Shown here piece by piece: positions 2,333-36,507 of a stretch of 64,000 nt of DNA; within the stretch, counting starts at the first letter, position 1, and every line of letters begins with the position of its first letter. The translations under genes and the position numbers were made by a program. The DNA is from Candidatus Saccharimonadota bacterium (lineage in GTDB: Bacteria; Patescibacteriota; Saccharimonadia; Saccharimonadales; Saccharimonadaceae), in assembly GCA_017536895.1 (NCBI GenBank), contig JAFWCN010000001.1, positions 13,943-77,942 of the forward strand. Reading direction: 5' to 3'. The notes below the pieces were generated by a model. That model made no database searches. It saw nothing but the letters and a program-made list of their open reading frames with translations, and was not told where the DNA came from.

Positions 2333-2782
2333 GTGGAACACTCATTCAGAATCGGAGATAGCAAGGTTCTAGAAAGCCGCGAAACCCTAGACGGTACTAT
2401 GATTCGTCGTCGCCGCGAATCTAGTGACGGCCATCGTTTTACTACTTACGAACGAATTGAAATGCCACCGCTTACTGTCACTAAGCGTAGCGGCAATAAG
2501 GAAATCTACGATCGCGACAAGCTACTTCTCGCTGTCCGTCGCAGTGTTGGCAAATTCTTTAATTCCGAACTAGAAGTCGAAGAAGTCGTCAACAAAGCCT
2601 CTGACATATTGTATTCCTATAATACCGATGAGATTACTAGTAAGCAAATTGGTGAAGCTGTTCTGGACGTCTTAGCCGAGGTTAATGAGGTCGCTTATGT
2701 TCGCTTCGCCTCCGTCTTTCGTGAGTTTAAGACTCTCGAGGATTTCGAAAATATTTTAAAGGAGCAAAAAAAGAAAAAATAA
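2333..2782 (+). CDS. nrdR: Transcriptional repressor NrdR, lacking zinc-ribbon cysteines
   Basis: GTG start after AGGAGG; DSKVLESR..IRRRRE..RFTTYER, ATP-cone VTKRSG, VAYVRFASVFREF. Confidence 0.92.
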   Translation: MEHSFRIGDSKVLESRETLDGTMIRRRRESSDGHRFTTYERIEMPPLTVTKRSGNKEIYDRDKLLLAVRRSVGKFFNSELEVEEVVNKASDILYSYNTDEITSKQIGEAVLDVLAEVNEVAYVRFASVFREFKTLEDFENILKEQKKKK

Positions 2783-31627: not shown

Positions 31628-32646
31628 ACCTAACCGATGAAGAGAAACAGATCTTCTGTGAAGTACTAGCCGAAAATGATATTTTGAGGGAATCCGGAGC
31701 CTGGCAAGGCGAGGACGAGCGCGCGAGCCCCGTGGCGACGGGCGCGAGCGACGCGGCCCGAAAAAGATCATTTCGGCTAGCCTACAAAGGAGCCTACAAC
31801 TTTCGCGTTAACGGCAAATCTGTCGGCCGAAACTCCACCAAAAACATCGATGTGAAACCTAAAACCGACAGATCCGGCCTCGACATCACTATCAAACCAG
31901 GCACCAAAAACGAACAAGTCCACATTCCCGTCGCCATCAGTGCCACTGGTATCAAAGAAGCAGTTTATAACGATTTTTACATTGGCGATAACGCCGAGGT
32001 TACCATCATCGCCGGCTGCGGTATCTATAATTGTGGCCCTACCGACTCAGTCCACGACGGCATCCATCGTTTTTACGTTGGCAAGAATGCCAAAATCAAA
32101 TACATCGAAAAGCACTACGGTTTTGGTCCCGGTAGGGGAGGAAAGATCCTTAACCCCGTCACCGAAGTGCATTTACAAGAAAACTCCGAAGCTAGTCTAG
32201 AACTCGAACAAATCAAAGGCGTCGACTCCACTATCCGCAAAACTACTGCCGATCTCGATAAAAACACTAAACTCATCGTCAAAGAACGCCTATTCACTCA
32301 CGGACGTCAAACTGCCGAATCAATCTACGAAGTAGCATTAAACGGCAAAGATTCCACCACCGACATCGCCTCTCGTTCCATCGCGCAAGATTTATCCAAA
32401 CAATCTTTCAAAGCCACCATCATCGGCAACAACAAATGCCGTGGTCACTCCGAGTGCGATGCCATCCTCATGGACGAAGCCGAGGTTCATGCTATCCCCG
32501 CGCTAGATGCTAAAACCAAAGATGCCGAACTAATCCACGAAGCCGCCATCGGCAAAATCGCGAGCGACCAAATCAAAAAGTTAATGACCCTCGGCCTCAC
32601 CAAAAAACAAGCCGAGTCAAAAATCATCAACGGCTTTCTTCATTAA
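31624..32646 (+). CDS. sufB: SufB/SufD (SmsB-like) Fe-S scaffold with an in-frame palindromic insertion
   Basis: IIAGCG, YIEKHYG, SECDAIL, IHEAAIGKI..LMTLGL..IINGFL. Confidence 0.85.
   Translation: MNLTDEEKQIFCEVLAENDILRESGAWQGEDERASPVATGASDAARKRSFRLAYKGAYNFRVNGKSVGRNSTKNIDVKPKTDRSGLDITIKPGTKNEQVHIPVAISATGIKEAVYNDFYIGDNAEVTIIAGCGIYNCGPTDSVHDGIHRFYVGKNAKIKYIEKHYGFGPGRGGKILNPVTEVHLQENSEASLELEQIKGVDSTIRKTTADLDKNTKLIVKERLFTHGRQTAESIYEVALNGKDSTTDIASRSIAQDLSKQSFKATIIGNNKCRGHSECDAILMDEAEVHAIPALDAKTKDAELIHEAAIGKIASDQIKKLMTLGLTKKQAESKIINGFLH
31666..31780. repeat. In-frame palindromic element C (sufB)
   Basis: Arms CTAGCCGAAAATGAT / ATCATTTCGGCTAG; core GCGAGCCCCGTGGCGACGGGCGCGAGCGACGCGGCCC. Confidence 0.88.
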
Positions 32647-32675
32647 AAATTTACAAAAATTAAGCATAAAAAGTC

Positions 32676-32729
32676 TTGCAATTCCATATTTAGTGTTGTA
32701 TACTGGATACCAGACACCAAATATAGCGT
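32676..32729 (+). promoter_or_regulatory. nrdDG promoter with tandem NrdR boxes
   Basis: TTGCAA-17-TATACT; 16-mers ATTCCATATTTAGTGT (32681) and ACACCAAATATAGCGT (32714) keep the core C4/A6/A8/T9/T11/G13 of the NrdR box; 33 bp apart. Confidence 0.75.
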
Positions 32730-32766
32730 CATACATAAAAATTTGAACAAACTAAAAGGAGGTAAA

Positions 32767-34965
32767 ATGTTCAAAAGAATCGTCAAAAGAGACGGCAAAA
32801 TCGTAAAATTTGATCCCGAAAAAATCACCGAGGCCATCGCGAAAGCTGGTCTTGCTACCGAAGAATTCAAATACGACCGAGCCAAAGCCTTAACCGACAA
32901 AGTCATCAACCGTGCCGACGAAGAGATTACTACTCGTACTCCTAACGTCGAACAAATCCAAGACATCGTCGAAGAAGTTTTGATGGAATCCAGTTTTAAG
33001 AAGACTGCTAGGGAATACATCCGCTATCGTCAAGAACGCTCTCGTCGTCGCGAAGCTAAATCTGATCTTATGATGATTTATCGTACGATTAGCCATGCTG
33101 ACGCTTCTGAGGATTCTGACGTCAAAAGGAGCAATGCTAACGTCGATGGTAATTCTGCCATGGGTAAAATGCTTCAATTTGGCGCGGAAGGCTCCAAAGT
33201 CTTCGCAAAATCATTATTGCTTCGTCCTGACATTGCCGCCGCCCATGACAATGGCGACATTCATATTCACGACCTAGATTTTTATGCTACTGGTACTTTG
33301 ACTTGTTGTCAGTCCGACCCATTCGTATTGTTTGAAAATGGCGGATTTAACACCGGCCACGGTCACCTTCGCACTCCGAACTCTATTGGCTCTTATGGCG
33401 CTCTCGCTGCCATCCTCCTTCAAGCCAATCAGAACGAACAACATGGTGGTCAATCCATCCCGAATTTTGATTATGCTATGGCTCCGGGCGTCAATAAATC
33501 ATTTAGAAAAGCCTTAAAGCGCAACCTCAAAAAATACAACAAATTCGCCGGTAAGAAACTTGACCTCGAAGTCAAAGACACTTACGAATATGGCAATGAC
33601 GATAAATTGAAAAAGGCAAAATGGCCAAAGGAAGTCATCGAGGCTTCAAACGAGGACGTCGAGCGTGAAACTCTCCAAGCCATGGAAGGCTTCGTCCACA
33701 ACCTCAACACCATGCATTCTCGCGCCGGTGCTCAGGTGCCATTTACCTCAATTAACTTCGGTACCGATACCAGTCCAGCTGGCCGACTAGTTTCAAAAGA
33801 TTTGCTTGAAGCTACCGCCAATGGTCTCGGCAAGGGCGAAACTCCAATCTTCCCAATTAGTATCTTCAAGGTCAAAGAAGGCGTCAACTACAATCCAGAA
33901 GATCCAAACTACGACCTCTTCAAGCGTTCGATGGAAGTTTCTGCTAAGCGCTTGTTCCCGAACTTCTGTTTTATCGATGCTCCATATAATCTCAAATACT
34001 ACAAAAAGGGTGACTATCGCACCGAGATTGCTACCATGGGTTGTCGCACGCGTGTTTTTGCCAGTATCTTCCCAGAATCCGATGGTATCGTCACTGGCCG
34101 CGGTAACTTATCTTTCACCACTATTAACCTAGTCCGTATCGGCATCAAACACGGTATTTGTTTGAAAGAGCGCAAAGAAGCCGACTGGGATGGATTTTAC
34201 CACGAATTAGACGAAAAGCTTGAGCTCGTCAAAGATGAACTCTTAGAACGTTTTGAATTCCAAGCTAATCAGCACGTCCGCAACTTCCCATTTCTCATGG
34301 GGCAAGGGAACTGGTTTGGCTCCGAGAAGCTCGGCTGGAATGATACATTAAGAGATGTCATCAAACACGGCACTCTGTCTATCGGCTTTATCGGTCTCGC
34401 CGAGACACTAGTCGCTATGACCGGCAAACACCACGGCGAAGACGAAGAAGCTCGCGAACTTGGTCTCGACATCGTCAGCCATATGCGTGAGAAGTGTGAC
34501 GGTTTCAGCAAGAAATATAAACTCAACTTCAGCCTTCTTGCTACTCCAGCTGAAGGTATCGCTGGTCGCTTTACCAAGATTGACCGCAAAGAATTTGGCA
34601 AAATCAAAGGCGTCACCGATAGGGAATTCTATACCAATTCCTTCCATGTGCCAGTTTATTACCCAATCAGCGCTTTCGAGAAAATCGAAATTGAAGCTCC
34701 ATATCACAATCTCTGTAATGCGGGCCATATTACCTATATCGAACTAGATGGTGACCCATCACAAAATATCGCTGCCTTTGAATCAGTCATCCGTAAAATG
34801 CACGACGAAGGTATCGGTTATGGTTCCGTTAACCATCCAGTTGACCGCGACCCAATCTGTGGCTTCTCCGGTATCATCACCGGTGACCGTTGTCCACACT
34901 GTGGCCGCCTCGAAGGTGATGTCCCGTTCGAGAAAGTATGTAATTGTGCGAAAGGTAATGCATAA
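32767..34965 (+). CDS. nrdD: Class III (anaerobic) ribonucleoside-triphosphate reductase, lacking the glycyl-radical tail
   Basis: ATP-cone, HIHDLDFY, TCCQ, HNLNTMHSRAGAQVPF, TMGCRTR, GRGNLSF, ATPAEG, YTNSFH. Confidence 0.93.
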   Translation: MFKRIVKRDGKIVKFDPEKITEAIAKAGLATEEFKYDRAKALTDKVINRADEEITTRTPNVEQIQDIVEEVLMESSFKKTAREYIRYRQERSRRREAKSDLMMIYRTISHADASEDSDVKRSNANVDGNSAMGKMLQFGAEGSKVFAKSLLLRPDIAAAHDNGDIHIHDLDFYATGTLTCCQSDPFVLFENGGFNTGHGHLRTPNSIGSYGALAAILLQANQNEQHGGQSIPNFDYAMAPGVNKSFRKALKRNLKKYNKFAGKKLDLEVKDTYEYGNDDKLKKAKWPKEVIEASNEDVERETLQAMEGFVHNLNTMHSRAGAQVPFTSINFGTDTSPAGRLVSKDLLEATANGLGKGETPIFPISIFKVKEGVNYNPEDPNYDLFKRSMEVSAKRLFPNFCFIDAPYNLKYYKKGDYRTEIATMGCRTRVFASIFPESDGIVTGRGNLSFTTINLVRIGIKHGICLKERKEADWDGFYHELDEKLELVKDELLERFEFQANQHVRNFPFLMGQGNWFGSEKLGWNDTLRDVIKHGTLSIGFIGLAETLVAMTGKHHGEDEEARELGLDIVSHMREKCDGFSKKYKLNFSLLATPAEGIAGRFTKIDRKEFGKIKGVTDREFYTNSFHVPVYYPISAFEKIEIEAPYHNLCNAGHITYIELDGDPSQNIAAFESVIRKMHDEGIGYGSVNHPVDRDPICGFSGIITGDRCPHCGRLEGDVPFEKVCNCAKGNA

Positions 34966-35612
34966 TGGAGCTTGGCAAAAATCGGTCTGGGGCATTTCGG
35001 AGCGCGGCAGCGCGAGAATTAGCGCGCGAGCCCCGTGGCGACGGGCGCGAGCGACGCGGCCCCAGACCGAATTTTGCAAGCTCTCTTGATAGGATTTCCC
35101 GTCAGTTAGATACCCCCGAGGGTTACATTCGTTTGAGTGGGCCCTTGGAGCACGACAACATCGTCAACGGCGACGGTCTTCGCGCTGTCCTCTGGACCCA
35201 AGGCTGTCCTAACCACTGTCCCGGTTGCCAAAATCCCGAAACATGGGACTATGAATCCGGCTATCTCGCAAAAATTGACGACCTTAAGGAAGAACTAAAA
35301 ACTTTCAAAGGTCAAGCCGGTCTCACCTTCTGTGGCGGGGAACCATTTGTTCAGGCTAAGGCCTGTAAGGAAATTGCCGACTGGTGTCATGAGGAATTAG
35401 GTTGGAATATTTGGAGCTTCTCCGGCTTTACTTATGAAACCATCAAAGAATACGGTAGAGAACCTTGGGAATTTCTTAAGTCACTTGATGCTTTGATTGA
35501 CGGTCCTTTCATTTTATCACAGCGTGATTTAAGCCTCAAATATCGTGGCTCCAAGAATCAACGTCTCCTACATCTAGAACGAAGTAAAGGAAAAATTTTA
35601 TCAATTGAATAA
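34965..35612 (+). CDS. nrdG: Anaerobic RNR activating radical-SAM enzyme with N-terminal palindromic insertion
   Basis: QGCPNHCPGCQNPETW (CxxxCxxC), GLTFCGGEPF, RGSKNQR. Confidence 0.93.
   Translation: MELGKNRSGAFRSAAARELAREPRGDGRERRGPRPNFASSLDRISRQLDTPEGYIRLSGPLEHDNIVNGDGLRAVLWTQGCPNHCPGCQNPETWDYESGYLAKIDDLKEELKTFKGQAGLTFCGGEPFVQAKACKEIADWCHEELGWNIWSFSGFTYETIKEYGREPWEFLKSLDALIDGPFILSQRDLSLKYRGSKNQRLLHLERSKGKILSIE
34968..35083. repeat. In-frame palindromic element D (nrdG)
   Basis: Arms GAGCTTGGCAAAAATCGGTCTGGGGC / GCCCCAGACCGAATTTTGCAAGCTC; core identical to element C over about 38 bp. Confidence 0.9.
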
Positions 35613-35646
35613 TATTTGATATAATAAAAGTAAATGTGGAGGAATT

Positions 35647-36507
35647 ATGGAAAACGAAAATACTAATGCATTCACCGTTACGCCGATGAACCAAGAAATA
35701 TCTTTGGCTCCAGGCGAAGTCTACGAAGGCTCAATCACTGTTATCAACCCTTCCTATGCCAAAGAGGACTTTTCTTACAAAGTTGAAGTTACCCCATACG
35801 GCGTGAGTGGAGAAGAATACACCGCCGATCTCCTCAGCGAATCCGATCGTACGGCCATCTCAAAATGGATTAAAATTGCTGAACCTACTGGGGAGATTAA
35901 GCCTAACGAATCAAAGAAAATCAATTTCACAATTACTGTTCCAGAGAATGTTCCGGCTGGTGGTCAGTATGCCACCATCGCTGTCTCCTCCAATAAAGAC
36001 GCTACAGACTCAAATGGAGTATCCGTTCAAAATGTCTTTGAAATAGCCAGTATTATTTACGCTAAAGTTGCTGGTGAGACTGTCCACGACGGTGAAATTA
36101 AGGAAAACAATGTTCCATCGTTCGTTCTCAGCAAGCCAGTCATTATTTCCGCTCTTATGACCAACAACGGTAACGTCCATGAAACCGCCACCTTTACTAT
36201 CACCGTGTCAGATTTCTTTACTGGTAATGTAATTCTGCCGACCGAGGAAAACACTGGCATCTACTCTGAAATCGTTATGCCAGAGACTACTCGTTATACC
36301 GAACGCGAAGTTAGTAACCTCCCGGACCTCGGAGTAGTCAAAGTCACTCAGACCATCAACTACAACGGCCAAACCTCTACCGTAGAAAAGAATATTATTA
36401 TTTGTCCAATTTGGTTCTTGGTCTTAATTTGTCTCACTCTTGCTGCGATTATCACGACTATTGTTGTGCTCATTAGGAAGCACCACCACAAAAAAGTTGT
36501 TGTATAA
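35647..36507 (+). CDS. Beta-rich cell-surface protein with C-terminal TM anchor (DUF916/DUF3324-like)
   Basis: Ig-like strands, VPAGGQYATI, NNGNVH, C-terminal hydrophobic helix and RKHHHKK. Confidence 0.65.
   Translation: MENENTNAFTVTPMNQEISLAPGEVYEGSITVINPSYAKEDFSYKVEVTPYGVSGEEYTADLLSESDRTAISKWIKIAEPTGEIKPNESKKINFTITVPENVPAGGQYATIAVSSNKDATDSNGVSVQNVFEIASIIYAKVAGETVHDGEIKENNVPSFVLSKPVIISALMTNNGNVHETATFTITVSDFFTGNVILPTEENTGIYSEIVMPETTRYTEREVSNLPDLGVVKVTQTINYNGQTSTVEKNIIICPIWFLVLICLTLAAIITTIVVLIRKHHHKKVVV

Follow-up and report, generated by a model that had tools for sequence, protein, structure and literature searches.

A 64,000-nucleotide stretch of the genome of a Candidatus Saccharimonadota bacterium (contig JAFWCN010000001.1 of assembly GCA_017536895.1; hereafter the window) carries an nrdD gene, for the catalytic chain of a class III ribonucleotide reductase (RNR), whose product lacks the glycyl-radical loop. 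A loop of the NrdD type is encoded on another contig, in a gene for a 146-aa protein that is kept in all truncated-NrdD species checked. To our knowledge, every characterised class III RNR bears the glycyl radical on its catalytic chain. We consider it likely that the clade to which this bacterium belongs possesses an obligately two-subunit class III RNR, which would have evolved through a stage resembling that of the spare-part glycyl-radical proteins. The preliminary description of the window, made from the DNA letters, had offered two explanations for the missing loop: a split enzyme with a separately encoded glycyl-radical peptide, or a recent inactivation of nrdD next to an inserted element. 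The discovery and the retention of the 146-aa gene support the former.

The truncated nrdD core lies at 32767..34965 on the forward strand and encodes 732 aa, from an ATG at 32767 (the reading frame opens at 32743/32767) that is preceded by the ribosome-binding site AAGGAGG (32756-32762, +) to a TAA stop at 34963-34965. An ATP-cone, a catalytic barrel bearing TCC and MGCR, and a zinc ribbon are all present; the loop is not. The protein terminates with VPFEK (34933-34935) and a 9-aa tail, VCNCAKGNA, so that positions 34840-34965 (+) read ...VDRDPICGFSGIITGDRCPHCGRLEGDVPFEK-VCNCAKGNA-stop in translation; the end may also be written ...CPHCGRLEGDVPFEK-VCNCAKGNA-stop. The tail is suspected to descend, by an in-frame deletion, from the post-loop tail V-A-C-N-K-A-G of full-length relatives, which VCNCAKG resembles by eye. 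The Pfam NRDD profile (PF13597) matches at 600.9 bits over positions 2-529 of 562, leaving 530-562 unmatched, and the ATP-cone is matched at 77.1 bits. Likewise, NCBIfam NF005497 scores 1026 bits (cut-off 764) over positions 1-709 of 746. With phmmer, residues 1-714 align to residues 5-704 of the P. copri NrdD chain (8p23) at 622 bits; this alignment stops at the zinc-ribbon CPxCG and includes the ribbon itself (...CG...CPHCG, residues 692-714). The catalytic cysteines are kept, with TCC at residue 179 and MGCR at 424, and the CxxxCxxC of the NrdG activase is intact at 35205-35228 (+).

A six-frame search of the nrdD locus, reading through stops, revealed no remnant of the loop (profile positions 532-562). 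Nor was any RxxGY loop or recoding signal found, in any frame, between nrdD and nrdG. The sole GY downstream, in TPEGY (about 35116-35126), was considered as a radical loop and rejected, since it belongs to a conserved N-terminal extension of NrdG. Thus, the absence of the loop and of any RxxGY ahead of nrdG, as well as the integrity of the TCC, MGCR and CxxxCxxC motifs, all stand as first described. It could be argued that the loop is nonetheless restored in cis, by correction of a misassembly or frameshift, by an intron, or by translational bypass over a GC-rich hairpin. The stop codon is indeed followed by a very stable hairpin (-95.7 kcal/mol, z = -5.95), and a precedent is offered by the nrdD gene of phage T4, which contains a group I intron. 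However, no loop-coding remnant exists downstream in any frame, and no Rfam family matched within 32000-36500 at E <= 1, indicating that the hairpin is no known intron or riboswitch. Moreover, the NrdDs of relatives without the hairpin end at the same point, and nrdG begins within the stop of nrdD, at an overlapping TAATG. Restoration in cis is for us an extremely remote prospect.

The genome (836 kb in 17 contigs, rated 99% complete) was searched as a whole, in six frames, with PF13597. The missing segment 532-562 was found at G000:C17:88222-88320 and at G000:C4:27271-27369. Both matches lie in small open reading frames, of 146 aa on C17 and 145 aa on C4, located between polA and fpg. The C17 gene (G000:C17:87970-88410) encodes protein P0001, whose loop reads FERLRRITG94YLVGTLDRWNDAKKAEEHARVKH, with the motif FERLRRITGYLVG. 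This search was the profile equivalent of the search for RIRRITGYLVG that the preliminary description had proposed, extending to open reading frames under 60 aa; the motif does occur elsewhere in the genome, but the candidate trans-acting partner is a conserved two-domain protein of 146 aa rather than one of those very short frames.

The two proteins are complementary. Residues 86-117 of P0001 align to residues 707-738 of the 8p23 chain, that is, to the buried radical loop including the radical glycine, and the two loops are nearly identical over RITGYLVGT-DRWN. Together, the window NrdD (chain residues 5-704) and the small protein (707-738) tile the full-length P. copri enzyme with a gap of two residues; on the Pfam NRDD profile they cover 2-529 and 532-562, respectively. 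The NRDD tail is the only Pfam match of the small protein, and PF01228, the pyruvate formate-lyase (PFL) type glycyl-radical family, does not match it. Its layout consists of an ATP-cone-like head (residues 1-80), the NrdD-type loop and a C-terminal helix. AlphaFold2, run with an alignment of 16 sequences, models the head at pLDDT 72-87 as beta-beta-alpha-alpha-beta-alpha-alpha. When this model is compared with the PDB by Foldseek, nearly all of the 50 best matches are ATP-cone proteins, among them NrdR (first, probability 0.99), an ATP-cone NrdB, class Ia R1 and class III NrdD. The position of the KRDG nucleotide-binding motif is occupied by YRNP, and Pfam detects no ATP-cone (PF03477) in the head at E <= 1.

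The second copy of the small gene probably belongs to another organism. Where C4 (33.8 kb) and C5 (10.3 kb) align to portions of C17 and C7, the identity is 67-80% in most stretches, and C4 carries a second polA, small gene, fpg block. In a tree of the small proteins, read without row G005, the C4 copy groups with G027 and the C17 copy with G006, G011 and G031. C4 is thus probably a contaminant, derived from another species within the clade; both C4 and C5 would be contigs of this related species that were binned into the assembly.

The small protein is a member of a sizeable family, with 2092 homologues of similar length in a large protein database; one of the clustered sequences bears the name 'hypothetical protein [Candidatus Saccharibacteria bacterium]'. 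Distant members have post-loop tails of the form G-V/Q-Y/F-S/T-x-x-E-K, like the full-length NrdDs of the genus. Such NrdD-like tails fit the idea that the small gene began as a mini-nrdD, stripped of its barrel but with cone, loop and tail retained. Seven metagenomic proteins of 90-184 aa (P0162, P0164, P0168, P0186, P0209, P0213 and P0266) also end in a near-identical NrdD loop, FERIRRITGYLVGT-DRWNDAKRAEEHDRVKH, preceded by quite dissimilar N-terminal regions that do not look like a cone. It would seem, then, that NrdD loops became free-standing on more than one occasion.

No class I or class II RNR (PF02867, PF00268) was found in the genome. A genome-wide search for PFL-type enzymes or GrcA (PF01228) returned only a weak, sub-threshold match inside NrdD itself, and the genome encodes a single NrdG-type activase. 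In the truncated-clade genomes searched, no glycyl-radical loop was found besides that of the small protein. Gly94 of the small protein is thus the only plausible substrate of NrdG, and the truncated NrdD the only plausible client of the loop.

The truncation is not peculiar to this assembly. A first draw comprised 36 genomes of the same genus; in the counts that follow, the present genome is included. Full-length NrdD (profile 2-562, or split between contigs) occurs in 19 genomes, six of which have the small gene, while truncated NrdD (ending at 529) occurs in 18, all with the small gene. A family-wide draw added 11 truncated genomes, all of the same genus (match end at 529/530, or a matching score); 10 of these 11 were checked, and each has exactly one full-length small-protein match and no other loop. 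The small gene is therefore kept in 28/28 truncated-NrdD species checked. In 16 further species-level assemblies that were read, NrdD ends at the same FE(K/R) point, a few residues before the stop, with short tails that vary. As the preliminary description had asked of related genomes, these do share the truncation: a maximum-likelihood tree unites the truncated NrdDs in one clade (support 100/99) of at least 17 species, in which the window NrdD groups with that of G011. A common end point in related species means that the truncation is no assembly artefact, and the tree suggests that it happened once, long ago, and that the species diverged afterwards. Elsewhere in the family, other genera such as g38 have a full-length NrdD plus a second match; a sampling of 24 further families of the order turned up no NrdD. 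In the full-length NrdDs of L018 (G036) and L019 (G029), the radical loop is separated from the conserved NGVYS-EEK tail by a cysteine-rich insertion of about 35 aa (CACDVENPANKCSVEGNTCDCGC...).

This distribution bears on the proposal that the small protein does no more than serve as a spare part in the manner of GrcA, or as a regulator such as an activase decoy or a cone-mediated modulator, with the truncated NrdD working in some other way or differing in function. The presence of the small gene in 6/19 full-length relatives, and in other genera such as g38, indicates that it has a role independent of a truncated partner, and its head resembles the ATP-cone, a regulatory fold. On the other hand, the truncated clade encodes no other glycyl-radical loop, yet its nrdG and the catalytic cysteines of NrdD are conserved, and the two pieces tile the P. 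copri enzyme almost without a gap. Furthermore, we know of no class III RNR that works independently of the glycine. It is therefore unlikely, in our estimation, that the small protein has only such an accessory function.

Neither gene behaves like a pseudogene at the level of codons. Within the truncated clade, the NrdD core has a median amino-acid identity of 0.909 against a third-codon-position identity of 0.446, and the small protein 0.759 against 0.414. Third positions were compared because synonymous sites are saturated in most pairs; the NG86 dN/dS values, about 0.03 for the NrdD core and about 0.08 for the small protein, come from the few pairs in which dS is unsaturated. These figures are those of strong purifying selection on the truncated NrdD. 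They are difficult to reconcile with the idea that nrdD is decaying or recently inactivated, that deoxynucleotides (dNTPs) are salvaged from the host, and that the small gene is an unrelated leftover. What lends this idea some credit is that most genomes of the family are without NrdD, that Saccharibacteria are episymbionts with a reduced metabolism, and that a mobile GC-rich repeat sits just downstream of nrdD. Yet the truncation is common to the entire clade, and no internal stop interrupts any of the 17 truncated nrdD genes read. The repeat (34984-35068, +; 85 nt, palindromic, GGTCTGGGG...CCCCAGACC) lies in frame within the 5' extension of nrdG. It is peculiar to the present genome, being missing at this position in G006, G001 and G011. 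It was accordingly rejected as the cause of the truncation: it resides in nrdG, and it is absent from sisters truncated at the same point. The suggestion of a recent inactivation of nrdD by the adjoining element must thus be abandoned, and decay of the gene appears very improbable.

The two unlinked genes also appear to be co-regulated, judging from their upstream sequences. The promoter/operator region of nrdD (32676..32729, +) has a -35 element TTGCAA (32676-32681), a -10 element TATACT (32699-32704) and two NrdR-box-like sites, CCATATTTAGTGT (32684-32696) and CCAAATATAGCGT (32717-32729), which are 33 bp apart. The small gene has its own terminator and a promoter, TTGACA-17-TATAAT, that agrees with the consensus at 12/12 positions. 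This promoter is overlain by two boxes as well, CCACATTTAGCGT and CCACATATAGCGT, again 33 bp apart, so that both genes would be controlled through the same tandem operator boxes. NrdR regulons are characterised by an nrdR gene and by tandem boxes spaced about three helical turns at nrd promoters. The candidate regulator here is an nrdR-like repressor gene (2333..2782, +; 149 aa) directly after ftsZ. Its product scores 116 bits against TIGR00244 over positions 10-145 of 147, below the cut-off of 124.65. All four zinc-ribbon cysteines are replaced (MEHSFRIGDS... and RRRRESSDGHRFTT), although the NrdR-box-like sites are conserved. Outside the nrd loci, three NrdR-box-like sites, including the perfect palindrome ACGCTATATATAGCGT, are present at G000:C16:12640-12720, between rpsL and the trigger-factor gene.

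The activase gene nrdG occupies 34965..35612 (+). Its product scores 130.6 bits against TIGR02491 (cut-off 126.1) and contains Fer4_12 and Radical_SAM domains. The ATG of nrdG overlaps the nrdD stop in TAATG, and the two genes would be translationally coupled; this overlap is conserved in truncated-clade genomes and missing from those of the full-length clade. Two features distinguish the NrdGs that accompany truncated NrdDs. The first is a clade-specific N-terminal extension (34965-35126, + in the window), about 22 residues of which (DW-KIS-EKI-KQ-E-P-GY) are conserved in the truncated clade; the NrdGs of full-length-clade genomes have no extension and start M-x-IRLSGP. The second is the glycine-rich motif, NGYG in the full-length clade and NGDG in the truncated clade (35166-35177, +, in the window; NGEG in one genome). 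In the PFL activase, the equivalent motif, DGxGxR, contacts the glycyl-loop peptide. By analogy, the change from NGYG to NGDG is suggestive.

We propose the following scheme. The large subunit, comprising ATP-cone, barrel and zinc ribbon, ends where the glycyl-radical loop should begin, and the separately transcribed 146-aa protein would supply that loop. NrdG would abstract a hydrogen atom from Gly94 of the small protein, whose loop would then enter the barrel of the large subunit beside Cys424 (MGCR), much like its cis counterpart in one-chain NrdDs, and hand over the radical so that NTPs can be reduced. The glycyl-radical domain of P. copri NrdD is mobile, and its order depends on the state of the ATP-cone (PMC11226230), which makes a detachable loop mechanistically plausible. 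The cone-like head, by analogy, suggests a means of docking on the large subunit. Historically, the small gene would first have coexisted with a full-length NrdD, in the spare-part-like state still seen in some relatives, before the cis loop was lost by deletion in one lineage. Since oxygen breaks the chain at the radical glycine, the probable advantage is that a damaged enzyme would need no more than a new 16-kDa protein. The missing cis loop, the conservation of both genes and the conserved nrdD-nrdG junction leave the accounts in terms of a mere spare part, a pseudogene or restoration in cis disfavoured.

A bolder extension of the two-subunit model, which we put forward tentatively and regard as rather doubtful, is that this class III RNR has converged on the two-subunit logic of class I. 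The degenerate cone of the head might then be a docking and regulatory handle that pairs with the cone of the large subunit. The NrdG extension and the change from NGYG to NGDG might be adaptations to a free substrate, and one activated small protein might serve, or swap between, several cores.

Several observations weigh against the two-subunit enzyme or its details. In the AlphaFold2 model of the free small protein, the loop has low confidence (pLDDT below 50). The best Foldseek E-value for the head is weak (0.03), with a TM of about 0.4, and hhalign of the small protein against NrdD ATP-cones gives a probability of 5%, that is, no support from sequence for a cone kinship. Since the sequence comparison is weak, it is from the fold that the ATP-cone idea is drawn. 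The degenerate motif CCAHATWTAGYGT has four sites in the genome, one pair each before nrdD and the small gene, but it was derived from the same four sites that it recovers; the independent point is that two unlinked loci share paired boxes with identical spacing. The loss of the zinc-ribbon cysteines from the NrdR-like protein makes the regulator of these boxes uncertain. NrdD was not seen in 242/401 genomes of the family, so that salvage of host dNTPs may suffice, and the status of sole RNR is no proof of essentiality. Finally, related genomes are not independent, and the perfect co-occurrence of truncated NrdD and small gene amounts to about one evolutionary event.

The GC-rich repeat at the start of nrdG is one of a family of palindromes. 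At least 10 further copies of at least 55 nt exist in the genome; copies are about 55-85 nt long, and 13/13 of those checked lie in stop-free open frames of 217-855 aa. Members of the family include C7:10563-10631, C8:29803-29877, C16:33559-33639, C16:3601-3655, C2:8152-8220, C10:6889-6963, C9:4420-4477, C6:18941-18994 and positions 31718-31759 of the window. The repeat is translated as ...FRSAAARELAR-PRGDGRERRG... or, in the other orientation, as ...PRRSRPSPRGERANSRAAALRN... In being an in-frame palindrome, it resembles the Rickettsia palindromic elements. In the sister species G031 (L032), the nrdD-nrdG junction holds a different structured insertion, of about 120 nt; repeats seem to land at this junction preferentially.

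In its general architecture, the system is close to the one-chain NrdD/NrdG pairs of P. copri (8p23), phage T4 (1h78), S. thermophilus (9d3x) and E. coli, with which it shares the ATP-cone, a barrel with TCC and MGCR, the zinc ribbon and an adjacent nrdG. One-chain NrdDs carry the loop and the C-terminal tail in cis, whereas the present NrdD ends after the zinc site and the loop is encoded on another contig. The glycyl-radical domain of the P. copri protein, for instance, comprises residues 676-739 of the same chain (PMC11226230).

Small free-standing carriers of a radical loop are likewise known for PFL, as the autonomous cofactors GrcA/YfiD of E. coli and Y06I of phage T4. With these as with the small protein described here, it is presumably the partner's activase that activates the loop, which then enters the partner's barrel. 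The relatives that combine a full-length NrdD with the small gene resemble the spare-part state of GrcA. There are differences, however. GrcA is of the PFL type (PF01228), to which the small protein has no match, and its N-terminus is disordered (PMC13450708), in contrast to the ATP-cone-like head. GrcA also rescues, after cleavage by oxygen, an enzyme that owns a loop, whereas the NrdD considered here has none; a gene content of the rescue type is found only in some of the full-length relatives. According to a 2026 review, no glycyl-radical enzymes other than formate lyases have a known spare-part protein (PMC13450708), and an earlier paper had raised spare parts for other glycyl-radical enzymes as speculation only (PMC8683613).

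RNRs whose catalytic polypeptide is split between genes have precedents in the other classes. Phage Aeh1 has a split class I enzyme, NrdA-a/NrdA-b. In P. aeruginosa, the catalytic polypeptide of the class II enzyme also comes from two genes, NrdJa and NrdJb, whose products must assemble (PMC4520616). In both, the catalytic chain is cut and the genes are adjacent. Here, by contrast, it is the radical-storing element of a class III enzyme that has become a separate protein, with an unlinked gene and an additional domain fused to it. In the literature, we found no relevant description of a split or trans-complemented class III RNR, or of RNR in Saccharibacteria.

For annotation, the consequence is immediate: the small gene goes under the label 'hypothetical protein', and a truncated nrdD such as this might pass for a pseudogene. 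If the two-subunit model is correct, the delivery of a radical to an RNR barrel would not need a covalent tether. The two proteins would also provide a separable experimental system for the study of glycyl-radical enzymes, from activation through loop insertion to the transfer of the radical. For the Saccharibacteria themselves, it would hint at how oxygen-exposed, genome-reduced symbionts of animal microbiomes may cheaply maintain an essential enzyme that is oxygen-labile.

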